This document shows, piece after piece, positions 24,688 to 55,462 of a DNA stretch of 64,000 nucleotides. Below the pieces are notes generated by a model that saw only the letters and a list, made by a program, of their open reading frames with translations, was not told where the DNA came from and searched no databases. The DNA is taken from NCBI GenBank assembly GCA_017403065.1, contig JAFQOT010000006.1, forward strand, positions 33,865 to 97,864, in the 5' to 3' direction. This DNA is from Clostridia bacterium. Its GTDB lineage: Bacteria > Bacillota > Clostridia > Oscillospirales > Acutalibacteraceae. Within the stretch, counting starts at the first letter, position 1; each line of letters begins with the position of its first letter. The translations under genes and the position numbers were made by a program.

Positions 24688-26448
24688 TTAGAATTTTTCT
24701 TCTTCGCCATTAGTGGTAAAGAAGGACTTTTCGAAATCGGAACGCTGATAGATTCTCATATAATCTATCTTTGTTTCATAGATATTGTCGATCATATCCT
24801 CGCTCCATCTAACGTTACCGTAGACACTGCTTCCAAGACGGCCGCCGAAAATAGGCTGAAGAATTACTTCTCTTAAAACTTCAGGTCCGCGGTTTTGGAA
24901 TTCACTCTTAATATCATAGGTGTAGAACACATCGCCGTTTGCTGCAAAGGACATAAAATCAGGTGTCCATTCCATGCTGAGAACGTAAAATTCGTCGTCT
25001 AAGAGAGGCTCGCCCTCTTTTACGTTGAATATTCTGTCCTCAGACCACTTTGTACCGTCGATAGAGGTATGACCTCCACTTGCATCAACACTTCCGTCCG
25101 CATTGTAAATGTCCCACCAACGGTGAACGTTAGATCTGAAATAGTCATTATAACCGAAGTTTTCTAATGCATCAATTTCTATACGGGGCTGCCATTTTAA
25201 CTGTTGAACAGTACCAAACCACCAAGACAATGTAGCTGGTGAGTCTGCCTGCTTATAGCGAGCTTCCCATAAACCATATCTAAACTGAACCTTTTTGTTC
25301 TGAGCACTCGGCGCATAGAAGTTTCTGGTAGTTTTATCGCACCAGTAAGGAAGTGTCCATATACCGTCCTTAACGGTGGTATATTTATCGAAATCCTCTC
25401 CGGAATACCAAATGAAGTCCGTACCGAGAACGCTTTGTTTTTCGTTAACCGATTTACCTCTGATAGTCCAACCTTTATAGTCGGCTTTAGAGTTGAAATC
25501 CAGACTCCAGACAAGCTTATAATCGCTGTCAGTAAAGGTTGCCATTTCGGTTACGTTATGGTCCTTAGTGTAAGAGAAGATCTTATCCTCTTTAGCGCTG
25601 TTAACAAAATCGTTATAGAAAACCTTTACTGCGATAGCTAAGGTTGCATCATCCTTAGCGTTGATAACAAGCTTCTTGCCTACAACGCGGATAGTGTAAT
25701 CCTTGCCTGCTAAATCAACCTGACTTTCCTTACGGTTTGTATTGCCAATAAGAATTTCATAATCGGTTTCAGCCTTTAAATCATTTACGAGTTCCATCTT
25801 AACGCCTGTCTGGGCGAAGTAAAAATCGGTCATTTCTTTGCAAGGCTTATAAGCAACCATAGCGCAGTTGAAAGGAGTAACAATACGGAATTTGCTAAGC
25901 TCGACTCCTGCTATGTTGTGCTTTTTTTCGTCGAACTTTTTCTGATAAATAAATTCGTATCCGTTATATAAATTCTCCCAGCTTTTCTCGTCTTTACAGA
26001 AGGTTTCTAAAAACCACTCCAAAGCTTTTTGTGTTACATCGTCACTAAAAGCATAAATAACGATTTTGTAGCCTGTTGCCTTAACAATAAAGTCATTTGC
26101 TGAATTTTTGCGGTTTTCTTTAAGAATTTTTTTAGCATCTGCTGTTTCGGGACGGTTTGTTTCACCTACTAAAAGCTCATAAGTCTGAGCATCGTAATCT
26201 AAAACGTCCTTCGAAAGAGTAGCAGCGCATGAAAGATTTTTACGAACATTTATTCTGAAATCTTTAACTGCATCAGTAAGCTCTGTAGTAGCTTTTTGTG
26301 GGTAAACAATAGCATAAGTAAATTTACCTTTTGTAAGCATTTCAGGGATTTCAACCGATGCGGTGGTAGAACCACCGCAGGCTGTTGCTGTTAAAATCAT
26401 AAGCAAAGCTAAGGTTAATGAAATTAAACGAATTATTTTAGTTTTCAT
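24688..26448 (-). CDS. lipoprotein with two N-terminal alpha/beta repeat domains and a C-terminal GH16-like beta-jelly-roll
   Basis: Lipobox LTATAC; repeated ...YE(L/I)L(V/I)G(E/N)TNR... modules; GH16 catalytic signature EIDALE in PRIEIDALENFG. Confidence 0.75.
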   Translation of the reverse strand: MKTKIIRLISLTLALLMILTATACGGSTTASVEIPEMLTKGKFTYAIVYPQKATTELTDAVKDFRINVRKNLSCAATLSKDVLDYDAQTYELLVGETNRPETADAKKILKENRKNSANDFIVKATGYKIVIYAFSDDVTQKALEWFLETFCKDEKSWENLYNGYEFIYQKKFDEKKHNIAGVELSKFRIVTPFNCAMVAYKPCKEMTDFYFAQTGVKMELVNDLKAETDYEILIGNTNRKESQVDLAGKDYTIRVVGKKLVINAKDDATLAIAVKVFYNDFVNSAKEDKIFSYTKDHNVTEMATFTDSDYKLVWSLDFNSKADYKGWTIRGKSVNEKQSVLGTDFIWYSGEDFDKYTTVKDGIWTLPYWCDKTTRNFYAPSAQNKKVQFRYGLWEARYKQADSPATLSWWFGTVQQLKWQPRIEIDALENFGYNDYFRSNVHRWWDIYNADGSVDASGGHTSIDGTKWSEDRIFNVKEGEPLLDDEFYVLSMEWTPDFMSFAANGDVFYTYDIKSEFQNRGPEVLREVILQPIFGGRLGSSVYGNVRWSEDMIDNIYETKIDYMRIYQRSDFEKSFFTTNGEEEKF

Positions 26449-29400
26449 TACAGTTTAGCCTCCTTATTCTTTTTATTCTTAATTAAAATTACGGTTAATA
26501 CTACGCCGCCTGCAATTAAAATTACAGCTGCGCAGATTATAATTACAAATACTGCTACAGGCATACCTGCTACAGAACCGCTTGAAGCAGGACGTGAGCC
26601 TAAGTTAGGATCAACAATCTTTTCTTCGCCCTGTTCCTGTGCTTGCGCATATTTCTCGTATGCTTTAACCTCAGCTTCGATTTCATAATCCTCTAAAGGT
26701 TGAACACCGCGGCTTAGCTGAGCGCCTTCGCCTTGATATTCTATCGTAAAGTCATCGAAGAACAAGCTGCACATACCAGGTGTTCTAAGAGAAATGTACT
26801 GCGCCTGAGCTACGAATGTGTAGGTTACCTCATGCCACTGATTGTCTGTTAAATCAGAAATGTTTATAACGTTAGTATAGTTACCCTTTCTGGAATAACC
26901 GTACTCTGGGCTGTGACAGGAAGCAATGGCAATAGAACCCTTTGTATGAGTTGTCTTATCCATCTTAACCCAGAAGGTAAGCTTGTATATAGCGCCTACA
27001 CCCATCATATCCTTAGGTGACATTATCTGCATAGCGCTATATGGTACGCCGTTACCAATTCTGTGGAAAGAATTATTGCCGCCGTGTACATTTGCCTTAT
27101 TATAGCCCGCGGTCTTTGGAGTATAAAGCTCTGAGTCGAAACCTTGGAACGGATTCAAAAGCGCTTCATCGAAATTCTCGAAATCCTGAGTGATAAGACG
27201 CTGTGCCCAAGAAGCATAAATCATTGTATCCTTAGTGAGCTTGAATTTCTTTATCTTGGTTGTCATTGAGTTTGAATCATAGTAGCCTACGAAAGCCATC
27301 TCCTTGTTACAAGGCTTAATCTCAGGAATGGTAACTGTTGTGTTTGTTTTGTAAATAAGGTATGGAACTTCCATTCTCTCAAAGGATGAGAAGGTTAACG
27401 CGCTTTGATTATCATCAAGACGGGTTATGGTGATGTTATCAATGCGGAAATCTGTATTAGCACCGCCAGCCAAAGATAATGCTAACTCGCCGTTTCTCTG
27501 AGTGGTGATAACACCTGCATAGGTGCCCCATTTCTCAAGAGGCGTGTTTTGAGTAAGCTGGTAAACAACGGCTTGATTTTTCGTATTCACACCAAGAATA
27601 GGTTCCTCTTCTTTTAGATCCTGGGTAGTGTATATAGTACGTGCTGTGTAGCCTATACTTCCTGTGTAGAATGTTATACCAGGTCTTTCAATGTTAATTG
27701 TAGGTGGAGTGATTAAATAATAATCAAACGATACCGCGTATCTTTCACCCTTCTTAGCAATAATATTCTCTCCGTCGAACATAAGCGGAATAGAGGTATA
27801 CATAGAGATACCTGGATTACCGTTAGAGTTAGGAATATTCGTGTCAAACTTAAGACTGTATTTACCTTCGGTTGCATAGTCTGTTACACGTGAGAGCTGC
27901 TTTGTATATTTGCCTGACTGGAAGTCGAATGTGTAATCGTCTTCAAATCCGCAAACAAGCCTTTGGCCTGCAGCGAATGCCCAGTTAGCATAAACGAATA
28001 TATCCTTATCGGTTTTAAAGGTGCCGATAGGTTGGCTTAAATCCTCGTCAGCATACCAACCGTAGAAGGTCTTTTTAGTACCAAGTGCAGCTCCGTCTAA
28101 TTTAGGCAGAGTTACATTAGCATTCTTCTTAACGATGAAGTATGGCTGAGTCTGTGCATATCCGCTCTTTGCAATTACAACAGCCTCATCAGCAGCAACA
28201 GCTTCAATACGGATATTGTCGATATAACCCTCGGATCCTTTACCTCCAGAAAAAGCAAAGGTTATGCAGTCTCTTGCATTTTCAAAGGTCATAGTGTCGG
28301 TCACAACAGACCACTTATCAACAACTGTTAGGTCATTTGGTGCCTTGTAACCAAGTTGTTTTTCGTTAGTTGATACAATATTACCGTATTTACCTAAGGT
28401 GTATTCCCCACCTGCTCTTGCAGAAAGACCTAAATACAGGTTACCTGAGGCAGCGTTGGTAACAATATAGTAATCATAAGAAATTACATATTTCTGACCT
28501 GCTTTTACAGTTACAGGCTTGCCTGAAGCGTCAACAAGAGCCAGACTTGCAGCACTTTTACCGTTATCAGCTACCGACTTATTAGGGTCAGGTGCCTTAA
28601 AGTGAAGCATTTTACCGTTAGCGCCGTCTACTACTTCAAAGAGGGCCTTTTTAGGATTAGCGGTAGATGAAGATTCTAAATCAACCGTTCCGTTACCTTC
28701 AAAGTCGATAAAATATTTATCTCTTGCGGCAATAACCCATCTTGCATATACAAGCTTGTTATCGTCAACAGCGGTAAAGCTTGATACCTTTTTATCTGCA
28801 GAGCAATCCTTGTCGGTATACCAGCCCTCAAATGTCATTTGAGAAGCAGAATCATAATACTCAACATTTGTAGGTAAGATATAATCCTCACCCTTTGTTA
28901 CTATGTAGTAAGGTGTATTAAGCTTCATACCTGAAACTGTAGAAACAACTACAGCCTGTTCATTATCTTCAAGCTTTCTGATTTTGATGTTATCGATATA
29001 ACCCTCGGTATTTTTACCGCCCATCATAACCAAAGCCAAGTACTTCTGGTTAGAACCGCTAGTAGTTGTGCCAATTGTTACAACGTCGGTCTGAGTAATC
29101 CAGCGACCCTCTTGGGTGTTACCGTAAGGAATAGCATGGTAAGCCGAGTAAATATACTGCTGAGATGCCTTACTTGCGGTAGTTGGGAAGAATTGTAAGA
29201 TATGGAATGCATTAGAGGTATTTCTGTTTTCAAAGCCTATGTAAAGCTTATTGCTATTAGTAGTAGCATTTGTCTTTAAGTAATATTCATAGGATATTAC
29301 ATATTTTTCCCCTGGGGTAGTTTCAATATAATTACCGCTTCCGTCCTTGAACATTAAGCGTGTAATTTTACTTATGGAGCCTACATGCTTATCTGTATCG

Positions 29401-31319
29401 GATTTGAAGTGGAAAGCCTTGTTGGTTGTTCCTGGGAAATCTGCAACCTCGAAGGTTGCGTTATAATCATTAGCACTCTTGGCGTCATTAGCATCGACAG
29501 TTCCGTTTTCAGTGGTATCAAAATCGATGTTGTAATAACCTTCAATCTGACTTGAGGGTGGTCCGCCAGGTGTTGGTGTTAAAGACTGTACGTCCCACTT
29601 ACACTTAACTGCAGCATCACCTGCAGGAGTTTTGGTCATATCGAGAGCTGAGCTTTCAGCATTTAACCAAGCGATAGTTGCAGTCTTTTCAGCGTCAGTA
29701 TATGTCTGGTTGGTTAAAATTTCAGCATAAGTTTTAGTAGTTACGCCGTTTTCACCGCCCTCATATGTGTAATATGGAACCTGAAGCGGATACTCTGTTG
29801 TATCAGGAATAAGAGCGTATTTACCTGCTGTTGTAGCACCGTCTCTTAATCTTTCGATTTTAAGGTTAGCAATGTAAAGGTCAGCGTTTTTACCCTTACT
29901 CAAAGCAAGAGATGCAGTGGTAAAGTCTTTACCAACAACCATAACACCTGTTACGGTAACCCACTTGCCTGTACCATCCTTTAGGATTTTAAAGTAGGTG
30001 TTGCCGCCGTGACCTGTTGTATAAGTTTTATTACCCATACGGGCAGTACCGTTTTCAATAACGTATGCATAAACGTCTTGGTCGCCTGACGCTAAATAAT
30101 ACTCAAAGGTTACTGCATAGTAAGCATTTTTTGCTATGCTTATTTTCTGACCCTCTGTATTATAAAGGTCGAAATAATACGGTGTATTTAAATTTGTTGA
30201 GTTCCAAGCACCGAATTCTTTACCGGATCTGTTAATAGCTGCATGATATGCGGTTCTGCCGTCTTTCTGAATAACTTCGGTAGTAACATTGCCGTTGTTA
30301 TCGTGAAGGGCAGTTGGGTTTGCACCCTGATATGCCGCATTATTAAAATCAACAGGTATTGCATTGGTGTTTATGGGCTTATCCTTCCAAGCGCACTTAA
30401 CTACCCCGTCCTTTACAGGAGATGTAGTCATATCAAGAGCTGCTGTACCCTCAGCGTTTAACCAAGAAATCATCTTCTCAGCGCCATTATCGTTATAGTA
30501 CTGAGTGTCTAATATATCGCTGTATTTAGCGGTTGTTACACCGTCTGCCTCAGCAGCAAATGTATAATATGGTTTGTCTAAAGGATAGGTTGTATTATCA
30601 GGAATAAGAGCGTAGTTACCTGCTGTTGTAGCGCCGTCTCTTAATCTTTCGATTTTAAGGTTAGCAATGTAAAGGTCAGCTCCTTTACCGAAACTCAAAG
30701 CAAGAGATGTTGTGGTAATGTTGCTACCAATAGCCATAACACCTGTTACGGTAACCCACTTGCCTGTACCATCCTTTAGGATTTTAAAGTAGGTGTTGCC
30801 GCCGTGACCTGTTGTGTAGGTCTTATTGCCCATACGAGCAGTGCCGTTTTGCATAATAGTTACATAAACATCTTGGTCGGCTGACGCTAAATAATACTCA
30901 AAGGTTACTGCATAGTAAGCATTTTTTGCTATGCTTATTGCCTGACCCTCTGTATTATAAAGGTCGAAATAATACTTTGAATAGTGCTTTTCGTTTATTT
31001 CGGTTGTTGTTGTATCGTCTGCTGTGGAATAGGTGCCGAAATCTTTACCGGCTTTGTTAATAGCTGCATGATATGCAGTTCTGCCGTCTTTCTGAATAAC
31101 TTCGGTAGTAACATTGCCGTTGTTATCGTGAAGGGCAGTTGGGTTTGCACCGCTATATGCCGCATTGCCGAAATCAACTGTAAAGCTTTGACCGTTTGAA
31201 AGTGTTACGGACTCAGCCGACGCAGCAAAGGGCAAACCTATAACCACAATAGCTATAGCGCAAACTATAGCAACAGTTCTGGCAGAAAGTTTTGATAAAA
31301 TATTTTTGATATTTCTCAT
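26448..31319 (-). CDS. 1623-aa cell-surface protein: signal peptide, six CBM4_9-like beta-sandwich modules, five of them followed by B-repeat-like modules (three clear, two variant), C-terminal TM anchor
   Basis: Module ends YI(A/D)N(L/I)KI(E/R); (F/Y)xG(W/Y)Y...(V/I)YA(R/N/S)W repeats; C-terminal VAVFVIIICAAVILIAGGVVLTVILIKNKKNK; no catalytic motif seen. Confidence 0.85.
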   Translation of the reverse strand: MRNIKNILSKLSARTVAIVCAIAIVVIGLPFAASAESVTLSNGQSFTVDFGNAAYSGANPTALHDNNGNVTTEVIQKDGRTAYHAAINKAGKDFGTYSTADDTTTTEINEKHYSKYYFDLYNTEGQAISIAKNAYYAVTFEYYLASADQDVYVTIMQNGTARMGNKTYTTGHGGNTYFKILKDGTGKWVTVTGVMAIGSNITTTSLALSFGKGADLYIANLKIERLRDGATTAGNYALIPDNTTYPLDKPYYTFAAEADGVTTAKYSDILDTQYYNDNGAEKMISWLNAEGTAALDMTTSPVKDGVVKCAWKDKPINTNAIPVDFNNAAYQGANPTALHDNNGNVTTEVIQKDGRTAYHAAINRSGKEFGAWNSTNLNTPYYFDLYNTEGQKISIAKNAYYAVTFEYYLASGDQDVYAYVIENGTARMGNKTYTTGHGGNTYFKILKDGTGKWVTVTGVMVVGKDFTTASLALSKGKNADLYIANLKIERLRDGATTAGKYALIPDTTEYPLQVPYYTYEGGENGVTTKTYAEILTNQTYTDAEKTATIAWLNAESSALDMTKTPAGDAAVKCKWDVQSLTPTPGGPPSSQIEGYYNIDFDTTENGTVDANDAKSANDYNATFEVADFPGTTNKAFHFKSDTDKHVGSISKITRLMFKDGSGNYIETTPGEKYVISYEYYLKTNATTNSNKLYIGFENRNTSNAFHILQFFPTTASKASQQYIYSAYHAIPYGNTQEGRWITQTDVVTIGTTTSGSNQKYLALVMMGGKNTEGYIDNIKIRKLEDNEQAVVVSTVSGMKLNTPYYIVTKGEDYILPTNVEYYDSASQMTFEGWYTDKDCSADKKVSSFTAVDDNKLVYARWVIAARDKYFIDFEGNGTVDLESSSTANPKKALFEVVDGANGKMLHFKAPDPNKSVADNGKSAASLALVDASGKPVTVKAGQKYVISYDYYIVTNAASGNLYLGLSARAGGEYTLGKYGNIVSTNEKQLGYKAPNDLTVVDKWSVVTDTMTFENARDCITFAFSGGKGSEGYIDNIRIEAVAADEAVVIAKSGYAQTQPYFIVKKNANVTLPKLDGAALGTKKTFYGWYADEDLSQPIGTFKTDKDIFVYANWAFAAGQRLVCGFEDDYTFDFQSGKYTKQLSRVTDYATEGKYSLKFDTNIPNSNGNPGISMYTSIPLMFDGENIIAKKGERYAVSFDYYLITPPTINIERPGITFYTGSIGYTARTIYTTQDLKEEEPILGVNTKNQAVVYQLTQNTPLEKWGTYAGVITTQRNGELALSLAGGANTDFRIDNITITRLDDNQSALTFSSFERMEVPYLIYKTNTTVTIPEIKPCNKEMAFVGYYDSNSMTTKIKKFKLTKDTMIYASWAQRLITQDFENFDEALLNPFQGFDSELYTPKTAGYNKANVHGGNNSFHRIGNGVPYSAMQIMSPKDMMGVGAIYKLTFWVKMDKTTHTKGSIAIASCHSPEYGYSRKGNYTNVINISDLTDNQWHEVTYTFVAQAQYISLRTPGMCSLFFDDFTIEYQGEGAQLSRGVQPLEDYEIEAEVKAYEKYAQAQEQGEEKIVDPNLGSRPASSGSVAGMPVAVFVIIICAAVILIAGGVVLTVILIKNKKNKEAKL
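29595..31181 (-). repeat. intragenic tandem duplication (about 0.8 kb per copy) inside the 1623-aa gene
   Basis: aa ~47-311 and ~322-575 are near-identical. A 74-nt identical DNA run occurs at 30253-30326 and 31078-31151 (offset 825 nt). Confidence 0.9.
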
Positions 31320-31440
31320 ATTTTGTATACCCGCAATACTTGTAAATATTGCAAAATATACTTTCCACCTTCCTTTCTGAAAGATTTGAAAAAGGGATTC
31401 TCCCCAAAATGTGACTAAAAATGCCTATAGCCACCAAATC

Positions 31441-31468
31441 GGATTGTCGGAAATTAACCCGACAACCC
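31441..31468 (-). terminator. intra-operon hairpin (partial terminator or stabiliser) after the 442-aa SBP gene
   Basis: Minus strand GGGTTGTCGG-N8-CCGACAATCC, 10-bp stem including one G-U pair, weak U-tract (GATTTGG). Confidence 0.4.
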
Positions 31469-31485
31469 GTTAAATTTTTTAAGAA

Positions 31486-32814
31486 TTATTTATATTCTTC
31501 TATAGTTTTATCAATAATAGCATTAGCTTCCTGAATGCAGTTATCTAATGTGCCACTTACGGTTGCGATGTTAGTGGTGATCTGGCTTGAAGAGCCCTTA
31601 ACAACAGGGTTCATAAAGACCTGAGGCATTCCGTTTGGATACAATACTCTGTATATAGTACCTTCACACATATAAATAGAAAAATCACCATTCTTAAGCT
31701 GGTCTTTCGCTAATTTAGCAGAAGATTCGTTCAGGTAAACCTCATCCATATCGTAGTTGTTATCATCTAAGAAGTAACGAATGAAGTAACCTGCTGCGAG
31801 TGGGTTTTTAGAGCCTTCGCAAAGACCGTATGTGCGTGAAGCAATATAAGTGCCAGGATAATTTTCATCAGAAGCATTTCTCTTAGGTAATTTTGTATAT
31901 GCTACAGTTGCTGGGTCAACGTTTTTATAATATCCATTCTTTCTTAAAGCAAACGCAGAGGTTAAACACATTACGCCTGTACCATCAGGGATGCCACTTG
32001 TAGTCATACCTGATGGTGTATAAGCAAGATTGCTTTCGCTTATTTCAAGTATGTACTTATAGCAGTCAAACAAGTTTGTGTTGGTAGAAATGTTTTCATA
32101 TTTACCTGTTTCGGTATTGAAATTGATCCACTGAGCGCCATAAGCATTTAAGAATTGTTGGACGTCGAGAGAGGTGTTGTTATTATCACCGTCAGCAGGA
32201 GCGTTTCTAATATCCTTCATACACTGCTTGAAGGTTTCCCAAGTCCAGTTGTTTTCTTTTATGTACTCATCAGGTGTTTTAATTCCGTAAGTTTCAAAAA
32301 ATTCAACGTTATAGGTAATAATAGAGGCAGCTAATCTATTGTATGAATTAGCACCGTTTACTGCGTAGGTCTTGCCACCAAAGGTGTAGTATGGTATTGC
32401 ATTTTGATCCCAGAATTTATCCTTGGGGTCTATTCCTGCATTTTCAATAGGTTGAAGAACCTGTAAAAGTGTGGCAATAGTACCGTTTTCAACTATAACA
32501 TCAGGAGCATCGTCAGCTGCTATCTGAGCCTGTAGCTTAGCAACGTACTGAGCTTCTGGATAAATTTCCATTTCAACGTCAATACCTGTTAAGTCAATAA
32601 AGCCCTCGATAACGCTTGCGCACTCATCTGCTGTATGGTCACGCCAAGAAGCAAATCTAACGGTTGAGCCAACTAAATCAACAGGAATATTGTCAAAATA
32701 CGCTGTATCAACGTTTGCTTGCTTGCCGCCCTTGTCTTTGTCGTCACCACAACCGGTGAAACAACAAGCGATCATGCAAACCGCCATAAGAATTGCTGAA
32801 ATTCTCTTAATCAT
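31486..32814 (-). CDS. CUT1-family sugar ABC transporter substrate-binding lipoprotein
   Basis: Lipobox CFTGC. ORF reaches 32829 (GTG), but the ATG at 32814 follows GGAGG by 8 nt. SBP family-1 architecture. Confidence 0.85.
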   Translation of the reverse strand: MIKRISAILMAVCMIACCFTGCGDDKDKGGKQANVDTAYFDNIPVDLVGSTVRFASWRDHTADECASVIEGFIDLTGIDVEMEIYPEAQYVAKLQAQIAADDAPDVIVENGTIATLLQVLQPIENAGIDPKDKFWDQNAIPYYTFGGKTYAVNGANSYNRLAASIITYNVEFFETYGIKTPDEYIKENNWTWETFKQCMKDIRNAPADGDNNNTSLDVQQFLNAYGAQWINFNTETGKYENISTNTNLFDCYKYILEISESNLAYTPSGMTTSGIPDGTGVMCLTSAFALRKNGYYKNVDPATVAYTKLPKRNASDENYPGTYIASRTYGLCEGSKNPLAAGYFIRYFLDDNNYDMDEVYLNESSAKLAKDQLKNGDFSIYMCEGTIYRVLYPNGMPQVFMNPVVKGSSSQITTNIATVSGTLDNCIQEANAIIDKTIEEYK

Positions 32815-32840
32815 AGGTTTTTCCTCCACTTTAATATTTT

Positions 32841-33416: not shown

Positions 33417-34400
33417 TTATCCTGTAATGCCTACTTTGTCAATACTTTGTACGAATTTTTTTTGTACAATCATATACATAATTAAAACAGGTAAAATAAA
33501 GATTAAGCAAGCCGCCATAACTATCATCGCTTTTTCTGTTATGGCATGTTTTCTGAATAAAACACTAATAGATTCTTCTATAGTGTTCAGTTTAACTGCC
33601 ATTGGGTAATTCGATGATGTATACATAACGGCGAGATAATAATCGTTCCAGTGCCAGATTACAGAGAATACAGAAACTGTGAAGAGTATAACGCCTGAGG
33701 ATGGTATTGCAATACTTAGGAATGTTCTGAAAGGACCTGCGCCGTCGATCCACGCAGCTTCTTCAAGCTCTTTCGGAAGTCCCTTAAAGAACTGTATATA
33801 CATAAATATTATGATACCTGCGCGTAAGCCTACACCAAAAAGACTTGGTAAATAGAAAGGCCATACAGAATTTAACAAATTGATTTTTATAGGCTCACCT
33901 ATAATATTTTCAATAAGTCCCACTATTCCTAAAATATCAAAATCTGAGAAATTGATGGTCATAGGAATAATAATCATTTGTGAAGGGATGAATATAAGCA
34001 GCATAAGGAATACATTTAAAATACCCTTAAGCTTAAAGTCGAAACGTGCCATACCGTAAGCCGCCAATGTGCAAGAGAAAATTTCAATAACAGCGGCTAC
34101 TATTTCGTATACTAATGTGCTTATAAACGAATTAGAAAAATCTAACGCCTCGAAAGCCTGAGTAAAGCCTTCTAATGAAAACACCTTAGGAATCCACACA
34201 ATGCTTGGGTCTAAGAATGCGTCAGGTGTTTTTAAAGCTGTTGTTATCATAAATACCATAGGGTAAATAATAACGTAGCTTATTGAAATAAGCAGAACAT
34301 ATCGGTAAAGCGATACCAAAAATGAGCCTGCCTTTTGCATCATTTTTTTCTGGTAAAGAGCCTTACTCTCAGGGGTAGAAAACTGTTTCATTTTTAACAT
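33417..34400 (-). CDS. carbohydrate ABC transporter permease (MalG-like)
   Basis: 6 TM, EAA-type loop LEEAAWIDGAGPFRTFLSIAIP. Confidence 0.9.
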   Translation of the reverse strand: MLKMKQFSTPESKALYQKKMMQKAGSFLVSLYRYVLLISISYVIIYPMVFMITTALKTPDAFLDPSIVWIPKVFSLEGFTQAFEALDFSNSFISTLVYEIVAAVIEIFSCTLAAYGMARFDFKLKGILNVFLMLLIFIPSQMIIIPMTINFSDFDILGIVGLIENIIGEPIKINLLNSVWPFYLPSLFGVGLRAGIIIFMYIQFFKGLPKELEEAAWIDGAGPFRTFLSIAIPSSGVILFTVSVFSVIWHWNDYYLAVMYTSSNYPMAVKLNTIEESISVLFRKHAITEKAMIVMAACLIFILPVLIMYMIVQKKFVQSIDKVGITG

Positions 34401-34416
34401 AAAATCTACCTCCTTT

Positions 34417-35313
34417 TTATTGCCAACGGCTAGCGCAGAAACGGTTGTACAACCAAAGCACTAAACCTGTTGCGGCGCCAACGCATAAGAAATAGGTCCA
34501 AAGCATAGCAGAAGCTCTGCCATATAACTGAGAATCCATCAAAGCGTAAGCCTGCGTCATAACAACATCTGTCTGAGATGTCATAGCGTCAACTACTGTA
34601 AATACCAAAACTAAAACTATAACGTTTGAAAGCATTGGAAGTGTGATAAACCAGAATTCCTCCCATTTGGTTGCGCCCTCAACCTTGCCTACCTCGTAAA
34701 GAAGCTCAGGAATTGTTTGCATACCCGAAATAAAGAGAACTATCTGTATACCGCAGCTCCAGATGATATTCATAATACCGCTAAGTGTAGTGCTTATGAA
34801 ATCACCGATTTGCTGAGGAAGACCTGTGAAAGCGATAATCTCACTTACATCTATCATACCGGAGGATACCGATTCATCTGACTGTATAGAAGAAACGTCA
34901 CCTGCTTGATATTGGAAAAGCATTGCAAGAACCGAGCCCGCAGCCATAATAGCAGGTAAGAAGTACACTACTCTGAAGAACAAACGTCCTTTAAACTGGC
35001 CACTAAGCATAATTCCGATAATCATACTTAATATCAAAATTACAGGACAGGTATATAAAAGTGTGAATAAGCCTTGGCCTAAGTTATTTGCAAATTCAGG
35101 GTCTTTTTGGAATATGTAATTGATATTGTCAAGACCCACCCACTTCATCATTGTTCCGCCTACTACAACTCTAACGTCTGAGAAGATGTATATAAGCGAT
35201 TGGAAGATAGGATACACGAAGAAAAGCAGTAAGCCTATAATCCAAGGGGTTACAAACATTAAACCGTATCTGCTTTTAAGCGTTTCTATTCCTCTGTGCT
35301 TTTTTAGTTTCAT
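34417..35313 (-). CDS. sugar ABC transporter permease (MalF-like)
   Basis: 6 TM, EAA-type loop YEVGKVEGATKWEEFWFITLP. Confidence 0.88.
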   Translation of the reverse strand: MKLKKHRGIETLKSRYGLMFVTPWIIGLLLFFVYPIFQSLIYIFSDVRVVVGGTMMKWVGLDNINYIFQKDPEFANNLGQGLFTLLYTCPVILILSMIIGIMLSGQFKGRLFFRVVYFLPAIMAAGSVLAMLFQYQAGDVSSIQSDESVSSGMIDVSEIIAFTGLPQQIGDFISTTLSGIMNIIWSCGIQIVLFISGMQTIPELLYEVGKVEGATKWEEFWFITLPMLSNVIVLVLVFTVVDAMTSQTDVVMTQAYALMDSQLYGRASAMLWTYFLCVGAATGLVLWLYNRFCASRWQ

Positions 35314-37562
35314 GATTGTCCCCCCGATACATTGTTAATTACCAAATAATCCTTGGCTTCTACTACACCGTCGGCTGTTTGATAAGAAGTGTCGCCATAG
35401 TTTACGTAAATTACGCTGCCATTATCAAAGGTTGTTTTGCGAACGTTGTTTTCAACTATATCGTAGCCTTTGATTTTAGCGCCACAAACCGATTTGTAGC
35501 AATTTGAATATTCCTCAACCATTTTCGCTACAGTTTCTTTATTGCTTTCATATTCAGAAGCAAAGAAGGCAGTGTAGCTGTCATGCAGACCCTCGTTATA
35601 TTCGTCTGATAATGTGAAGAGCAAGCCAAGACCTGTCTGAACTGTATTAAGGAATGCCTTTTCAGGCTCATTAGAAAGGTTGATTGCGGTACCAGTCATA
35701 GGTACGTAGCCCTTGAAAACGATTTGATAGAAAGGAATGTCGCAGTCAAACAAATCGCTTTGAGATGATGTTGTAGGCGAATCATAAATTATGTCAGACA
35801 TAGTGGCAGCATAATCGAATGCGCCGTGTGACATGACCTTTTTGCCACTCTTTTTAACATTAGCAAGCTGCTGTGAAACCTGTGTTGCAACAGAGCCCTT
35901 ACTGTAATATTTTTGTTCTGAGTAATCAGAATACGCTGTGCTTGTTAAAGAATCTAAGGAAACTCCTGAAATTTCTAACTTATCAGCAAATTTAATAGCC
36001 TTTTGTATAGCTTCAGGTATTAAGTCACGTCCCAGAAGCTTATATGTTGGTAAATTTTTATCAACACCCTTGTTACCGATGTTGTAGGTTTTAATAGTGG
36101 TGGCTCTGTTGTTGGTTGCAACAGCAGAATCAAACATATTTGAGAAACCGTCGCCTGATTTTGCAAAGGCTGTAACATCCATATCAACATAAAGTGAAAA
36201 GTCTTGCTCCTCGCACCAAGCTGAAAGCTCTTTTACACCCTTTTTACCGCCCATACCTGAATGAATGGTATATCCACCGGCAATTTTACCCACATTTACA
36301 CCGCTTTCACCGAAGCCTACAAGGCAAACATTAGGGTTGGTATTTGTTGTTTTCTTAATATCCTTTAAAATGTCAACAACATCATCGGTTGTTGTTGAAG
36401 CAAACATAGATTTATAAGGAACACCTAAAAATGATTTTTGGGTTTCAGCTCCGCCCAAAATATTAAGGTTGAGAATATTTTCTTCTGCGTTTGCCTTCAT
36501 ACCGTAAGTATCCACAAGATAATCACGGTAAATATCTGCCATTCCGGTAATGTTTGCGTTACCGTTATTTAACGGATAGTAGGATACCGAAATTTTTTCA
36601 GAAATAAATTCATCAGAGTAAAGCTTTGACTCTTTAGTAATCATTCCCTTTGCGGTTACGTTTTGGTATCCGCGAATGTCAAATCTTGGATAAACGGTTG
36701 TATATCCAATATTTTTATTAGCGTAGTTTACCTGAAGTGTAGCAGCGCCTGCGCCACTGGTAATAATTCCGAACACACCTCTTGAGCCGCTTGCATCAGC
36801 CGAGCCGAAAACAGGCAAAGCAGTATTCTTTTCAATAGAATATTGAATTAAATCCTGTGGATAAATCTGTAAGTCGTTTCCGTAAACGCTTGTTGAGTAT
36901 GAAAGAGAAGCGTCTAAATTATCCTTAGCGTATATAAGCGCGCCGCTTCCTGACGGAACAAATAAATATCCGTTCTGGGCATTTTCAATACCACAGAAAT
37001 ATGGAGCAAGGTTAATGCTTATAAGAGTGTTTTTGCCCTCTTGAATTTCATTGGGGTCGATAGAAATCTCAATATGGTCGTCAGCAAGGATATAGCTTAC
37101 AGGGATTACAAATTCTTCCCTTTCAAAGCAGTATATAAGCTTAAAACCGTTATCGATTTTTTCTATCTTATAGTCCTTTTTCCTTAATGATGAGGTATAA
37201 CTGTTTGCAGTAGCTATCTCTATGCTGCCTTCCTTCATATAGTTAACCATCATTCCGGATTCAAGCATTACTGCATTGTTGATTACATTGCCTTTTTCGT
37301 CATACTTAGGAACCAATGCGCTTGAAGGAATATTAGTCCATACCGAGCCGTCATTTTTATCTGTCATAAGGATTCGGTAATTCTCAGAATCCCACGAAAG
37401 AGCATAGCGTGAGTTTTCAGCCGCTGTAAAGCTATCTACTGCTTTGGCGCTGAAAGCTTTGAACGCTTTAGGAGCTATAGGCTCCTCTCCGCCGCATGCC
37501 GTAAAGGTTGCGGTCATAACCAAGCACATCGCTAGAACAAAAATACGTTTTAAATTTTTCAT
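35310..37562 (-). CDS. 750-aa lipoprotein of unknown function (resembles proteins I recall labelled DUF5696; unverified)
   Basis: Lipobox TFTAC, GGAGG SD, start/stop coupling (ATGA) to the downstream permease; no motif I can assign. Confidence 0.8.
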   Translation of the reverse strand: MKNLKRIFVLAMCLVMTATFTACGGEEPIAPKAFKAFSAKAVDSFTAAENSRYALSWDSENYRILMTDKNDGSVWTNIPSSALVPKYDEKGNVINNAVMLESGMMVNYMKEGSIEIATANSYTSSLRKKDYKIEKIDNGFKLIYCFEREEFVIPVSYILADDHIEISIDPNEIQEGKNTLISINLAPYFCGIENAQNGYLFVPSGSGALIYAKDNLDASLSYSTSVYGNDLQIYPQDLIQYSIEKNTALPVFGSADASGSRGVFGIITSGAGAATLQVNYANKNIGYTTVYPRFDIRGYQNVTAKGMITKESKLYSDEFISEKISVSYYPLNNGNANITGMADIYRDYLVDTYGMKANAEENILNLNILGGAETQKSFLGVPYKSMFASTTTDDVVDILKDIKKTTNTNPNVCLVGFGESGVNVGKIAGGYTIHSGMGGKKGVKELSAWCEEQDFSLYVDMDVTAFAKSGDGFSNMFDSAVATNNRATTIKTYNIGNKGVDKNLPTYKLLGRDLIPEAIQKAIKFADKLEISGVSLDSLTSTAYSDYSEQKYYSKGSVATQVSQQLANVKKSGKKVMSHGAFDYAATMSDIIYDSPTTSSQSDLFDCDIPFYQIVFKGYVPMTGTAINLSNEPEKAFLNTVQTGLGLLFTLSDEYNEGLHDSYTAFFASEYESNKETVAKMVEEYSNCYKSVCGAKIKGYDIVENNVRKTTFDNGSVIYVNYGDTSYQTADGVVEAKDYLVINNVSGGQS

Positions 37563-37572
37563 GTTTTACCTC

Positions 37573-39696
37573 CTAACGAAATGCTACTTCTAAGAATATG
37601 GTGCCAACAAATGTGAAAATCTGCTGAACCATTATTATTGTTACTGCAATAAGGAATACAACGAGAAGTAATCCAAATATAGAAAGAATTGAAGTTCCAA
37701 CGAATTTACCGAATGTGTAATCGTGAATTTTCATCAAACCTATTGCCAAAAGCAACACTGTATATATAACAGCAACTGTGCCGATAATAGAAAGGAATGA
37801 TGCTTCGCTTTCTAACAGGAAGTTGGACAACACTGTTGTAACCACATTGGAAATTATTAAAACTATTAACGAGTAACAGGTAACAATGTAAATTTCTTTA
37901 ATTTTACCTAAACCGTTAAATAATGTACATACAGCCCAGTTAACAACTGTCCATATAAGTACCGCACCCAAGGAGCGAATTAAAACTACTATAGAGTTAA
38001 AGGCTGTAGCATCAGTTGAAGAAAATGTAAATCCGTAAAAATCGTTTTTGAGAATTTCAGAAATATAATAAACTACCAAAATTATTGTAGCGTAAATTAC
38101 AGAGCCTTTTTTCTTCTCTCTGATTTCGCCAAAATTGTTTGCAGGGTGAATAGGTACAGTAAGAGCAAGTCTTAAATCGTAATTTTTAATAAATACAATA
38201 CCCTTTTTCTTCTTGTAAACCAGTCCTGCCCAAAGCGCTGCCACCAACAAAACGCAGCCTACAAATATAAATCCGAAGTTTTTGCTTAACAGGTCACTTC
38301 TTAATTGCTCGTAAGCTCTTCCGTAGGTATCTCTGTCTAAGCCCTTCTTTGAATATTCAATAGCGGCTTCATAGTCAGCTCTGTTAAATGCAGCTCTTCC
38401 CAAGCCGATATACGCAAGCTGGCAGTTTTTATCCTGTGCGAGAATATTTTCCCAAAGGTCCTCTGCCTTATCATAATCACCGTCGTTAGAATACTGCTGA
38501 GCAGTTCTTAAAAGCTGACCGTATTCGGTAAACTTGAAAATGGTAACGCTTTGCTTTAACTGGTCGCAGACATAAAGCCTGTCGTTATAATAATCAATGC
38601 CGCAAGGCTTTTTAAATGTTCCCGCCTGAGTGCCGTTACCAACACCTCCACCGAAAGCAGAAACGAAATTGCAGCTGTTGTCATACATATATATATTGCC
38701 TAAGGAACTGTCGTAGCAATACAAGAAGCCTTGGTTATCTACGCATACACTTGAAATGTCAGGTTTAACGGTTCTTCCTAAAGAGTTATGGGTGATTTGA
38801 TCCTCGCCGAAAGGCTTTTCGCCTTTTAGTATATTTGTACCTATTGGGCTTAAGCGGCGAATAGCATTCACTCTGTTGTTGTTATTAGTAGAGCCGGTTG
38901 CAGTATAAACGAAGCCTTCGTTATCTACATATATATCTACCAACTGATACGGCAAGCTTTTTACACTATAGTCATACTTTTCGCTTGTCATTGTTAAGTT
39001 TTCCCACAAATTAGCAAGAGCTGACAAGAAGGAAGCTTCCGCTTCGTTAGCGCCGTAGAAGCCTATAAACTTACCGTCGGGATTATATAAAATCGCACCG
39101 TAATAGCAACCGTCACTTAAAACATAGGTATAACCGCTTTGGTCAACCGTTACTCGTATGGGACGGAAGGTAAAATCATCAGGCATAAGTGATGAATCCG
39201 GAACGGTGATAATATCACTTACGTTACCCTGCGTATCCGACACGATAATTCTTGCATTGTCGGTATCGCATATATACATTACGTTTTCGGGAGAAACAAA
39301 TATTCCTCTCGGTTTTTTAAGCTTTAACACTTCACCGTTATTGTTAAAAGAAGTAATCTGATGAGAAAGCTTATATTCTGAACTAATTACTGTTACCTTT
39401 GCCTCGGTTGTATCTACTAAATAAATAGAACCGTCAGGACCCACGCTCATATCAGCTATCTCGGTAAAGCCTGTAAGACCAAGTGTTCCCGCATCAACAA
39501 CTGTATCTACGCTGAATGCTGCTTTAGTGGGCACAGGCTTGTTTACATAAGAATCTTGCCAATATGTATACGAGTTATAGGCCGTATCTGATTCGTATCC
39601 CGCAGCAGATACAACCAATGTAGCAGACAAAATAAATGTAATCAGAGCAAAGATAAAACATCTTGTAAATAAGTTTTTAACTGAATGTTTTTTCAT
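37573..39696 (-). CDS. fusion membrane protein: signal peptide, six-bladed NHL-repeat propeller, TPR segment, Yip1-like 5-TM domain
   Basis: Six NHL-like blades (DGSIYLVDT, VMYICDTDNARIIV, GYTYVLSDG, GFVYTATGS, GFLYCYDSSLGNIYMYD, RLYVCDQLKQSVTIF), a TPR-like helix pair, then TM helices. Confidence 0.8.
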   Translation of the reverse strand: MKKHSVKNLFTRCFIFALITFILSATLVVSAAGYESDTAYNSYTYWQDSYVNKPVPTKAAFSVDTVVDAGTLGLTGFTEIADMSVGPDGSIYLVDTTEAKVTVISSEYKLSHQITSFNNNGEVLKLKKPRGIFVSPENVMYICDTDNARIIVSDTQGNVSDIITVPDSSLMPDDFTFRPIRVTVDQSGYTYVLSDGCYYGAILYNPDGKFIGFYGANEAEASFLSALANLWENLTMTSEKYDYSVKSLPYQLVDIYVDNEGFVYTATGSTNNNNRVNAIRRLSPIGTNILKGEKPFGEDQITHNSLGRTVKPDISSVCVDNQGFLYCYDSSLGNIYMYDNSCNFVSAFGGGVGNGTQAGTFKKPCGIDYYNDRLYVCDQLKQSVTIFKFTEYGQLLRTAQQYSNDGDYDKAEDLWENILAQDKNCQLAYIGLGRAAFNRADYEAAIEYSKKGLDRDTYGRAYEQLRSDLLSKNFGFIFVGCVLLVAALWAGLVYKKKKGIVFIKNYDLRLALTVPIHPANNFGEIREKKKGSVIYATIILVVYYISEILKNDFYGFTFSSTDATAFNSIVVLIRSLGAVLIWTVVNWAVCTLFNGLGKIKEIYIVTCYSLIVLIISNVVTTVLSNFLLESEASFLSIIGTVAVIYTVLLLAIGLMKIHDYTFGKFVGTSILSIFGLLLVVFLIAVTIIMVQQIFTFVGTIFLEVAFR

Positions 39697-39713
39697 TTAA
39701 TTTTCGCCTCCTA

Positions 39714-40619
39714 CTATTCCTTGATACCGGCGCTGCTCATAGATTCCATAATGTTGCTCTGGGAAATCATATAAACTAAGATAGGCGGTATCATCATAAT
39801 TACCGTAACCGCCATGGCGCTACCTGAACGGGCGATACCGCCGGCAGTAATTTGTTGCATGATGGTAGGTAATGTTTTTAAGCTTTCATTAAATATTGTA
39901 CCTTGTGGTGTAATAGCCCACGCTTCGCGGAATCCAAAAAGAATAAGGGTAAGAAGACAAGGCTTAACTATAGGCACAGCTATCTGGAAGAAAATTCTGT
40001 ACGCTCCTGCTCCGTCAACCCTTGCAGCTTCAAGAAGCGCGTTTGGTATAGCACCCTCCATATACTGCTTCATAAGGAATACACCCATTGTAGAAGCAAC
40101 GTGAGGAATAATCATAACCAAATATGTATCAATAAGACCAAACCAAGAATAAATCAAGTATCTTGGAATTGACAGTGTGTACGCATTAAACAAAAGCGCG
40201 AACTGTACTATAAGGAAGAAGGTCTTTCTACCTTTTATTTTTGACTTGCATAGAGCAAAAGCAGCCAATGTTGCCAAAAATACATATAAAAGAGTAGAGG
40301 TTATTGTAACAAACAAGCTGTTAAATACATATCTGGAAAGAGGTATTCTCAGGTTTGATAAAAGTCCCGGTAAAGCGGCGTAGTTAGCTACTGTAGGACG
40401 TATTACAAAGAAACGCGGCGGGAATACCAAAAGCTCATCCAAAGGCTTAAAAGATGTAACAATACAGTAAACCAAAGGAAGTACCGAAAAGGCGCCAAAT
40501 GCAACTAAAAACAAAACATAAAAGAAGTTGCCCACTTTTGATCTTGTATAGCGTTTATATTGACTTTCTTTTGACACCTTTAATTTGGGAGTCTTTGTCT
40601 TAACATTATTTTTTGTCAT
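39714..40619 (-). CDS. carbohydrate ABC transporter permease (MalG-like)
   Basis: EAA loop LLEAARVDGAGAYRIFFQIAVP; 6 TM. Confidence 0.9.
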   Translation of the reverse strand: MTKNNVKTKTPKLKVSKESQYKRYTRSKVGNFFYVLFLVAFGAFSVLPLVYCIVTSFKPLDELLVFPPRFFVIRPTVANYAALPGLLSNLRIPLSRYVFNSLFVTITSTLLYVFLATLAAFALCKSKIKGRKTFFLIVQFALLFNAYTLSIPRYLIYSWFGLIDTYLVMIIPHVASTMGVFLMKQYMEGAIPNALLEAARVDGAGAYRIFFQIAVPIVKPCLLTLILFGFREAWAITPQGTIFNESLKTLPTIMQQITAGGIARSGSAMAVTVIMMIPPILVYMISQSNIMESMSSAGIKE

Positions 40620-40632
40620 TATTAAATCCTCC

Positions 40633-41535
40633 CTATCTTCCTACAGAATCAATGGCCTTTTTGATTACAGCACGTGTTACGGCCATCATTACGAACAATA
40701 CAACTGCCAATGCAGATGCATATCCCATTTCATACTTAACAGTACCAACGTCATGCATATAAGAAACGATGGTATCAACTGCATAGTTAACGCTGGGGTA
40801 GCCTGCAAGCTCAATAGCGATAGCGCTAACCGAGAAGGCAGAGGCTATCTGCATAACAGCGCTGAACAACAGCATGTGCTGCATAGCAGGCAATGTAATG
40901 TACCAAAGCTCTTGCCAGCGGTTTCTGATACCGTCAATAGCGCCCGCCTCATACATTTCACCATTTACGTTCTGCAAACCTGAAATGTTAGAAAGGAAAG
41001 ATACACCCATACTCTGCCACAACTGGACAGCTATAATAATCGGCATAACATAGGTAGCATTTTTAAGCCAGGAAATCGGCTCGGTTAAGATGCCTATAGA
41101 CATTAAAAGGCTGTTTACATAACCGTAGCTATCTGACGAGAAGGCTGTCTGCCATACGAAGTAGGCGTTACCTACAAGGGCAGGACAATAGAAAAGGAAT
41201 GATAAAATAGTACGCACCATTGGACTGAATTCGTTAATAAACCAAGCTAAAACGAAGGCAAGCAAAAAGCCTAAAGGTCCTGTGATAATTGCGAATACTA
41301 CTGTATTTTTAACAGTAATAGAAAATATTTCATCATTTAATATCATACGGGCGTAGTTATCCACACCGTTAAATTTAGGGGCGGAAACCATATCAAAATC
41401 CGTAAAACTAAAAATTATGGAGGTGATAACAGGTAATACCGTTAATATAACGAATACTATAAAAAACGGTAACACCATTGTGTAATACGGAATCCATTCC
41501 TGAAGAATGTTCCGTGTTTTTGTAGTCATTTTCAT
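40633..41535 (-). CDS. sugar ABC transporter permease (MalF-like)
   Basis: EAA loop YEAGAIDGIRNRWQELWYITLP; 6 TM. Confidence 0.9.
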   Translation of the reverse strand: MKMTTKTRNILQEWIPYYTMVLPFFIVFVILTVLPVITSIIFSFTDFDMVSAPKFNGVDNYARMILNDEIFSITVKNTVVFAIITGPLGFLLAFVLAWFINEFSPMVRTILSFLFYCPALVGNAYFVWQTAFSSDSYGYVNSLLMSIGILTEPISWLKNATYVMPIIIAVQLWQSMGVSFLSNISGLQNVNGEMYEAGAIDGIRNRWQELWYITLPAMQHMLLFSAVMQIASAFSVSAIAIELAGYPSVNYAVDTIVSYMHDVGTVKYEMGYASALAVVLFVMMAVTRAVIKKAIDSVGR

Positions 41536-41552
41536 TAAATCTTCTCCTCCAT

Positions 41553-48112: not shown

Positions 48113-48189
48113 TGGCACGCTGAAAGGGATTCGAACCCCCGACCCTCTGCTTAGAAGGCAGATGCTCTATCCAACTGAGCTATCAGCGC
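48113..48189 (-). tRNA. tRNA-Arg (anticodon UCU), CCA encoded
   Basis: Hand-folded cloverleaf: acceptor GCGCTGA/TCAGCGT, D-arm GCTC-AGTTGGATA-GAGC, anticodon loop CT-TCT-AA, T-arm GGGGG-TTCGAAT-CCCTT, discriminator G, CCA. Confidence 0.9.
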
Positions 48190-55200: not shown

Positions 55201-55462
55201 AAAAAATCCCTGAGACTGCTATATTGCAATCTCAGGGACGAATAATATTCGCGGTACCACCCTGATTACCATAAAAGGTCACTCTACGAGCTCTAACAAG
55301 CTCTTTGTCGTGATAACGGGACAAACCGTAACAGCTTACTTTGTTTCAGCCGTTCTGCTCGGGAATGAGACTTGACACCTTGCACCGCCGCCGACTTGCA
55401 CCAACCGTCAGCTCTCTGAATTTTAGTAACAAAGGCAATAATTCCTTCAACGCATTTATACC
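55201..55462 (-). promoter_or_regulatory. T-box riboswitch leader, probable Leu (CUC) specifier
   Basis: Minus strand: K-turn-like TGCGTTGA...CGAGCA, AGAGAG bulge, GGTTGGTGCAA distal loop, T-box AATCAGGGTGGTACCGCG (55250-55267), terminator 55201-55238 with a T6 run. Confidence 0.9.

Follow-up and report, generated by a model that had tools for sequence, protein, structure and literature searches.

Surface glycan-binding proteins (SGBPs) of the SusE/SusF type, found in the polysaccharide utilization loci (PULs) of Bacteroidota, are non-catalytic, multi-domain and membrane-tethered binders that stand beside a surface endo-glycanase and an importer. In the described PULs of Gram-positive bacteria, carbohydrate-binding modules (CBMs) are, so far as is known, carried by the enzyme itself, which is usually sortase-anchored. 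Such loci have been described (Sheridan et al. 2016, PMC5320581), among them the mixed-linkage glucan locus of Blautia producta with its surface enzyme of glycoside hydrolase family 16 (GH16) and its ATP-binding cassette (ABC) importer (PMC10318527). In the xanthanase RuGH5a of the uncultured Ruminococcaceae UCG13, CBMs in tandem occur together with Listeria-Bacteroides repeats (Ostrowski et al., bioRxiv 10.1101/2021.06.02.446819). Polysaccharide capture in Gram-positive gut bacteria is far less understood than the Sus paradigm of Bacteroidota. Here we analysed a stretch of 64,000 nucleotides from an uncultured Clostridia bacterium of the Acutalibacteraceae (assembly GCA_017403065.1, contig JAFQOT010000006.1, positions 33,865 to 97,864), hereafter the window, and in it a gene coding for a large surface protein, hereafter the binder, which overlaps the gene of a GH16-like lipoprotein, its partner. 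The binder is probably a non-catalytic surface glycan-binding protein, with predicted glycan binding, that works with a GH16-fold lipoprotein ahead of ABC uptake.

Domain structure of the binder

The binder open reading frame (ORF) occupies positions 26448 to 31319 of the window on the minus strand (31319→26448), starts with ATG and codes for 1623 amino acids; its coordinates and length agree exactly with an earlier note made from the sequence alone. The plus-strand reading was rejected, its frames being stop-ridden, and so was an alternative start at an upstream in-window TTG behind the Shine-Dalgarno-like GGAAGGTGG, which is out of frame. The protein consists of a signal peptide, five modules A to E, a sixth module F, a helical linker, one transmembrane helix and a KNKKNK tail; all features given below for the binder and its neighbours are on the minus strand.

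Segment-versus-segment BLAST resolved five homologous modules of about 190 amino acids, a repeat far above chance. Modules A (aa 40-232; 30624-31202) and B (aa 315-497; 29829-30377) share 71% identity (E 2e-128), and modules C (aa 590-787; 28959-29552) and D (aa 864-1045; 28185-28730) share 35% over 247 aa (E 2e-34). Weaker matches join C to E (E 5e-13), D to E (E 2e-14) and A to D (E 1e-9), module E covering aa 1116-1304 (27408-27974). On module A, the envelope of A2, a profile built from 11 A-E-type modules, spans aa 40-230 (E 1e-50). The six-module build that had been proposed was thus recovered, with A to E homologous to one another and the membrane-proximal module F (aa 1374-1535; 26715-27200) tied to them by profile-profile comparison (see below). 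Each of the module-end strands quoted in its favour was found, LYIANLKIERL at aa 216 and 481, YIDNIKIRKL at 774, YIDNIRIEAV at 1032, RIDNITITRL at 1292 and FFDDFTIEY at 1520.

Modules A and B arose by recent duplication in tandem, visible in the DNA as direct repeats of 85-92% identity with a spacing of 795-825 nt (29737-31178). An 88%-identical orthologue on a 7.5-kb contig (P0002) has one module copy fewer than the window binder, either by strain copy-number variation or by assembly collapse of the short contig.

Between the modules lie segments of two kinds. The InlB-type B-repeats that had been proposed after C (aa 788-863; 28731-28958), D (aa 1046-1115; 27975-28184) and E (aa 1305-1373; 27201-27407), each a segment of about 70 aa, were matched by a family B-repeat hidden Markov model (HMM) built from relatives' repeats alone, with E-values of 9e-15, 1e-14 and 5e-13. 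The corresponding GWY...YAxW pairs stand at aa 829/857, 1084/1109 and 1342/1367. General models leave the repeats just below threshold: against a gathering value of 27 bits, Pfam Flg_new gave 26.1 for the whole binder, 26.8 after C (E 6e-6) and 20.2 after D (E 6e-4), the repeat after E had no Pfam match, and the Listeria-Bacteroides repeat TIGR02543 scored 17.7 on the binder against a threshold of 20.95. In the structural model of module C described below, most of the adjoining repeat has a predicted local distance difference test (pLDDT) score of about 83-94. The 80-aa segments after A (aa 233-314; 30378-30623) and B (aa 498-577; 29589-29828) are another matter. The words WLNAE, VKCAW and VKCKW on which they had been called variant B-repeats are present, and the segments have no Pfam match; since the family HMM was not significant there (E 0.04 and 0.1 among 5 sequences), that designation is without statistical support. 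A Pro/Thr/Ser linker read directly from the sequence (SLTPTPGGPPSS, aa 578-589; 29553-29588) separates the second of these segments from module C.

Fold of the modules

Scanned alone, module F (aa 1372-1535) matched CBM_4_9 (PF02018) at 33.1 bits against a gathering value of 25.9 (E 8.5e-8), a match that was not reported in the Pfam scan of the whole 1623-aa protein. The orthologue P0002 and the more distant relative P0003 match CBM_4_9 at the same module. Modules A to E were tied to this family by several routes. Against the PDB, the A2 profile matched CBM16 (2zez, E 5e-4) and CBM4-2 (1gui, E 6e-3), and its hhalign comparison with a profile of 59 F-type modules gave a probability of 98.1% (E 8.5e-14). 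The A2 profile also detects the F-type module in P0003 and P0005, and in P0005 a direct Pfam CBM_4_9 match falls within an A-E-type module. An AlphaFold2 model of module C with its B-repeat, computed from 37 input sequences, reached a pLDDT of 76 and a predicted TM-score of 0.79; its top PDB neighbours in Foldseek were the CBM4 of CelK (3p6b, E 1.5e-5), CBM16, CBM22 and CBM4-2.

Because profile, PDB-profile and Foldseek matches point to CBM4, CBM16 and CBM22, the predicted module fold is the CBM4/9/16/22 jelly-roll and not an Ig-like adhesin fold. By its Pfam score, module F is a canonical CBM_4_9 member, and A to E form a divergent subfamily that has no Pfam model. The suggestion that the modules are CBM4_9-like was therefore borne out, passing the Pfam threshold in F and, among 29 family members scanned, in 10. 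Taken module by module, the Pfam scans and the structure prediction returned CBM_4_9 in F and a CBM-type jelly-roll in C.

No catalytic domain was detected in the whole binder by Pfam, NCBIfam and PDB searches, nor in the singly scanned modules by Pfam, and none was seen in unfused relatives, as expected from the absence of a catalytic motif noted earlier.

The partner lipoprotein

The partner gene (24688-26448) codes for a 586-aa lipoprotein whose N-terminal part has two alpha/beta domains and whose C-terminal domain, of GH16 fold, bears the residues E424-I-D426-A-L-E429. Its lipobox reads ...LTATAC followed by GG, and the cysteine (Cys24) is kept in at least 90% of homologues. The TAATG overlap pointed out in the earlier note is present: the binder stop TAA shares its last base with the partner ATG, and AGGAGG stands 9 nt upstream of that ATG. 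This one-base overlap suggests translational coupling of the two genes.

Several observations show that the label of GH16-like lipoprotein was right. The partner orthologue next to P0003 (locus L001), which shows 27% identity along its whole length (E 3e-68), scores 39.5 bits with Glyco_hydro_16, and PF00722 is carried by most of the 41 homologues. The AlphaFold model of the window partner (pLDDT 84) matches GH16 laminarinases in Foldseek with an E-value of 4e-16 and a TM-score of 0.74-0.76, and also GH16 O-glycanases, carrageenases and agarases. By sequence, its sole PDB match had an E-value of 0.011. Among 25 partner homologues neither E424 nor E429 varies, and D426 is kept in at least 90%; the ExDxxE motif lies on a predicted strand (residues 422-429) and was found in all six additional partners checked. 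We conclude that the partner is, on sequence and model, a GH16-fold lipoprotein with a catalytic-type motif and a predicted glycoside hydrolase activity, whose specificity these matches do not indicate.

The N-terminal half of the partner (aa ~25-300; 25500-26380) comprises two alpha/beta domains weakly similar to NAGLU_N and GH67_N. In other lipoproteins, similar N-terminal domains are joined to Exo_endo_phos, alkaline-phosphatase/metalloenzyme or metallo-beta-lactamase domains, of phosphatase or nuclease type, which suggests that they may serve as a general membrane-proximal pedestal or interaction module.

Pairing, fusion and distribution

The association of binder and enzyme extends well beyond the window. 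In seven independent look-ups started from the binder rather than the partner (P0003, P0005, P0013, P0027, P0036, P0053 and P0084), a partner-family lipoprotein with ExDxxE stood directly downstream in every case, at -4 to +45 nt. The pair in L001 has 26-27% identity to that of the window. Among the 37 multi-module ORFs of the loci fetched by way of the partner, 28 have a partner gene immediately after them. Moreover, at least seven family representatives are binder-GH16 fusions, with a multi-module N-terminus followed by homology to partner residues ~180-590 (E 1e-32 to 1e-74). Adjacency in all seven look-ups, the GH16 fold of the partner and these Rosetta-stone fusions strongly support the binder-enzyme pair that had been suggested from the gene overlap.

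A word-indexed search returned only four relatives of the binder, and none when the A2 alignment was used. Exhaustive HMMER search with the same A2 profile found 525 cluster representatives (50% identity) at E<=1e-3, 204 of them at E<=1e-10, so that the earlier zero is a sensitivity artefact and the count of four falls far short of the true family size. Most representatives have 1000-2200 aa and 3-8 modules; no close relatives of the whole binder were found in GTDB representative genomes. The Pfam matches across the 29 members were Flg_new in 27, CBM_4_9 in 10 (best E 2e-23), Flg_new_2 in 10, GH16 and Dockerin_1 in 3 each, MAM in 2, and a few matches in single members; apart from GH16, no family among them was catalytic.

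From the 438 hits of a GTDB-wide scan that used the partner as seed, 74 loci in 36 genomes were kept. All 36 are uncultured gut metagenome-assembled genomes (MAGs) of Acutalibacteraceae, Oscillospiraceae, Ruminococcaceae, Clostridiaceae, Eubacteriales or Clostridia, and the sources, where records name one, are sheep, goat, yak, rabbit and Hadza human samples. Partner paralogues number up to 12 per MAG within the fetched DNA, and binder and enzyme genes form tandem arrays in L006, L008 and L016. Fused binder-GH16 genes and split pairs adjoin in these three arrays and in L009, L020, L029, L032, L078 and L079. Dockerins are found on some fused forms (L079), so a cellulosome-like route of display also uses these modules.

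The order seen in the window, a DUF5696 gene, two permeases, a solute-binding protein (SBP), the binder and the GH16 lipoprotein, is repeated in L036, L037, L067, L081 and L083. The accessory enzymes differ from locus to locus, with GH3 in L001, GH78-like in L078, GH30 in L079 and GH29 in L082; the window has a carbohydrate esterase family 15 (CE15)-like esterase with uxuB, uxaA and uxaC.

Secretion and membrane anchoring

The binder begins with a signal peptide (aa 1-35; 31215-31319; MRNIKNILSKLSARTVAIVCAIAIVVIGLPFAASA, followed by ES) that on direct reading has a basic n-region, a hydrophobic core and an A-S-A cleavage site; hydrophobic N-terminal segments are general in the family. At the other end, module F is followed by a charged and probably helical linker (aa 1536-1585; 26565-26714), a 28-residue hydrophobic helix (aa 1586-1613; 26481-26564; Kyte-Doolittle 3.2) and, from aa 1614, the cytoplasmic stop-transfer tail KNKKNKEAKL with the stop TAA (26448-26480, base 26448 being common with the next ATG). 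Motifs of the types [LSPNI]PxT[GASN], NPxTN and LAxTG occur nowhere in the protein, no NCBIfam sorting signal matched, and the Pfam scan found no SLH, dockerin or cohesin domain. The C-terminal membrane anchor that had been described in place of LPXTG, SLH or dockerin signals, complete with linker, helix and tail, was therefore upheld.

This mode of anchoring is common among the relatives. Of 152 listed family members, 97 end in a transmembrane helix and a K/R-rich tail (median 8 residues, 56% K+R) with no sortase motif, and roughly a dozen and a half have [SP]PxTG[DE]-like signals in place of the plain transmembrane anchor. The latter include P0040, P0056, P0087, P0117, P0118 and P0127 and often show the pattern 'GYTGxxTGD-SSVSP...KKVF[AS]K'. 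Many of the membrane-anchored members share a juxtamembrane 'IIDxxL' motif, of which IVDPNLG in the linker of the window binder is an instance.

The F-type module is nearly always present in one copy per protein and ends a median of 82 aa from the C-terminus. It co-occurs with the transmembrane anchor in 67 of 71 cases; in the listed members, 67 have both, 4 have F without the helix, 30 the helix without F and 50 neither. The binder-GH16 fusions lack both. Our expectation that module F would abut the enzyme in the fusions was accordingly rejected, since F goes with the membrane anchor.

Proposed function and alternative explanations

The preferred interpretation can be put as a sequence of steps. 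The binder would be exported by the Sec pathway, cut after Ala35, and retained in the membrane by its C-terminal helix in a type I topology, with the KNKKNK tail inside. Its ectodomain of about 1550 aa, with six jelly-roll modules, three B-repeats, the two 80-aa segments and the Pro/Thr linker, would reach through and beyond the cell wall, where the modules would capture polysaccharide. The putative lipid-anchored GH16-fold endo-glycanase would cleave the captured chains, and the oligosaccharides would then be taken over by the solute-binding lipoprotein and the ABC permeases encoded nearby. As the C-terminus of the binder and the N-terminus of the enzyme would both be tethered to the membrane, the two proteins would be held side by side, a tethering that mimics the connectivity of the single-chain fusions in relatives. 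The flanking CE15-like esterase and uxaC/uxaA/uxuB-type genes give a weak hint, in which we place low confidence, that the substrate may be a uronic-acid-bearing glycan of plant or gum type.

Several points weigh against this interpretation. Scanned singly, modules A to E have no Pfam match, with no CBM_4_9 even at E<=10, and no ligand-contacting residues were identified in the modules. The model of module C is of medium quality, with one disordered loop of 24 residues below 50 in pLDDT, and its TM-scores to CBMs, normalised to the target, are only about 0.5. Its Foldseek list also contains protein-binding MAM domains, the Eph-receptor ligand-binding domain and a gingipain adhesin, so the fold alone is no proof of carbohydrate binding. 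The window partner itself has no Pfam match, PF00722 being absent even at E<=10. The loci fetched through the partner are biased towards adjacency, a bias mitigated by the seven independent look-ups. Finally, a structured gap of 166 nt parts the pair from the importer genes, so that co-transcription with the importer is no more than possible.

Other functions can be drawn from the same data. The binder could be a structural stalk or scaffold that serves mainly to place or hold the GH16 lipoprotein and further components of the surface by protein contacts, for example through the B-repeats or module F, with no glycan binding. B-repeats are generally seen as protein-interaction or spacer domains (bioRxiv 10.1101/2021.06.02.446819), module F, linker and helix form a conserved cassette, 3 of the 29 relatives have dockerins, some loci adjoin cohesin and dockerin genes, and scaffoldins anchored by a C-terminal transmembrane helix have been reported in Ruminococcus (bioRxiv 10.64898/2026.02.05.704116). 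We nevertheless regard this as unlikely: the modules belong to a carbohydrate-binding superfamily, fused relatives carry the same modules on the enzyme in the manner of classical appended CBMs, and the window binder has neither cohesin nor dockerin. A role as an adhesin, holding the cell to mucus of the host, to particles of plant material or to other microbes during colonisation and independently of nutrient uptake, would suit a long repetitive surface protein with B-repeats, a build typical of adhesins, and the structural neighbours include adhesin or lectin domains (YwfG, SraP, gingipain K1 and K3, MAM). The strict pairing or fusion with a GH16 enzyme, the position of the gene within an importer and catabolic operon, and accessory glycosidases that differ between loci and so point to substrate processing all speak against it, and make it quite unlikely.

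Least credible is that the modules, or the segments after A and B, hide an unrecognised activity such as that of a lyase or esterase. Modules A to E and both 80-aa segments match no Pfam model, and some lyases and hydrolases do use jelly-roll folds. The 37-sequence alignment, however, has as near-invariant residues of the jelly-roll part only F11, Y84, Y90, W151 and D187, all in core strands, and shows no evident conserved acid/base pair; the best structural neighbours are all non-catalytic CBMs, and the partner supplies catalysis. A cryptic enzyme is thus very improbable, and surface glycan binding in concert with the GH16-fold partner remains our preferred interpretation.

We also advance, tentatively and leaning somewhat against it, a broader proposal. 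The binder-GH16 pair may form the variable front of an undescribed Sus-like system in uncultured gut Acutalibacteraceae and Oscillospiraceae, the remainder being the solute-binding lipoprotein, ABC permeases, the DUF5696 lipoprotein and the Yip1/NHL/TPR membrane protein. Within a genome the cassette would have undergone repeated duplication and diversification, seen in the tandem arrays and the up to 12 partner paralogues of one MAG. Every copy would be tuned to another glycan, and the split form with its two membrane tethers would have evolved as an alternative to fusion. Differences in accessory enzymes between loci (GH3, GH29, GH30, GH78-like, CE15) hint at such tuning. If the proposal is true, diversification of the cassette resembles that of SusC/D pairs in Bacteroidota.

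Genomic context in the window

The window (39.5% G+C) has one copy of each cassette gene. The minus-strand locus starts opposite a divergent AraC regulator and runs through a 962-aa SBP, two permeases, a 707-aa Yip1/NHL/TPR membrane protein, the DUF5696 lipoprotein (35310-37562) and two further ABC permeases (33417-35313), the DUF5696-permease block (33417-37562) having the same order in several relatives. Next come a 182-aa lipoprotein and the solute-binding lipoprotein (447 aa; 31486-32829) that belongs to the adjacent ABC importer and whose gene, in many relatives, is the one just upstream of the binder; after a gap of 166 nt follow the binder and the overlapping GH16 lipoprotein. Beyond a second gap, of 158 nt, stand the CE15-like esterase, which has no signal peptide, a reductase of the mannitol-dehydrogenase family, UxaA and UxaC. 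Within blocks, neighbouring genes are separated by -4 to 27 nt, with the exception of the 36 nt from the CE15-like gene to the reductase. All surface components of the locus carry signal peptides or lipoboxes. The features of a Gram-positive PUL are thus all found here: an AraC regulator, two sets of SBP and permeases, a GH16-like lipoprotein, a CE15-like esterase and uxaC/uxaA/uxuB-type genes.

The 166-nt intergenic region (31320-31485) folds strongly (-53 kcal/mol, z -6.4). Immediately behind the SBP stop codon stands a GC-rich hairpin of 12 bp with no more than a short stretch of U after it, which may act as a partial terminator or attenuator, or as an element that stabilises the upstream mRNA and sets the levels of SBP and binder. 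Consensus scans for promoters and terminators gave counts near background and were uninformative.

Three proteins encoded at 35310-44441 deserve mention: the DUF5696 lipoprotein (750 aa), the 707-aa protein with NHL, TPR and C-terminal Yip1 domains, and the 962-aa SBP, which has a long N-terminal extension and a weak CBM_35 match. They travel with the cassette in the distant loci L001, L067, L081 and L083. A literature search on DUF5696, PF18952 and Flg_new with CBM found nothing, and a paper on a mucinolysome in Acutalibacteraceae had no bearing on the locus. By sequence, the PDB yielded no useful match for either DUF5696 or module F by itself.

Elsewhere in the window, also on the minus strand, are a tRNA gene (48116-48189) and a T-box leader (109 bits; 55231-55459) upstream of a LeuA/HMGL-like gene (53780-55159). 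In an 831-aa protein (51285-53780), a xylose-isomerase-like TIM barrel (AP_endonuc_2) is joined in an unusual combination with an adenylate-forming (AMP-binding) enzyme; the protein clusters with an amidohydrolase and the LeuA-like enzyme.

Comparison with known systems

No description was found in the literature of this binder/GH16-lipoprotein cassette, split or fused, or of its expansion in these MAGs. The binder itself is unsurprising in kind, and the family of loci is more interesting than the protein alone. The Oscillospirales clades that have the cassette are abundant in herbivore and human guts and mostly uncultured. The gene pair, a membrane-anchored multi-CBM binder with a lipid-anchored GH16-like enzyme, is recurrent, easily recognised, fused or split, and has many paralogues. 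Together with its conserved partners (DUF5696, Yip1/NHL), it therefore offers a concrete handle for predicting loci of glycan foraging in these MAGs, and also for work on a divergent CBM_4_9 subfamily, on possible new GH16 specificities and on assigning a function to DUF5696.

At the level of modules, the likeness is to the CBM_4_9 superfamily (PF02018; CAZy families CBM4, CBM9, CBM16 and CBM22), whose beta-jelly-roll and terminal 'YxDNI/DDI' strand are shared by the window modules. The CBM4 of Clostridium thermocellum CelK (3p6b), the CBM16 of Caldanaerobius ManA (2zez) and CBM4-2 of Thermotoga maritima Lam16A (1gui) are examples. Known proteins of this superfamily usually have one to three such modules on an enzyme, whereas the window binder has six on an enzyme-free, membrane-anchored protein. 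RuGH5a resembles it in being extracellular, in coming from an uncultured gut member of the Oscillospirales, and in combining CBMs with Listeria-Bacteroides repeats, but has a GH5 catalytic domain of its own; the window binder has none and would rely on the separate GH16-like lipoprotein. The Ruminococcus scaffoldins, from a related clade, have the same mode of anchoring. In contrast to the binder, they carry cohesins and assemble dockerin enzymes.

At the level of the locus, the logic is that of described Gram-positive PULs: a regulator, uptake through SBP and ABC permeases, an endo-enzyme at the surface, and finishing enzymes inside the cell. It differs in that two overlapping genes encode the binder and the enzyme, each of which has its own membrane anchor, and in the additional DUF5696 and Yip1/NHL proteins. 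The SusE/SusF SGBPs are alike in inferred role and have no sequence homology to the binder. Where they have an N-terminal lipid anchor and work with SusC/D, the protein described here would be held in a Gram-positive envelope by a C-terminal transmembrane helix and serve an ABC importer.

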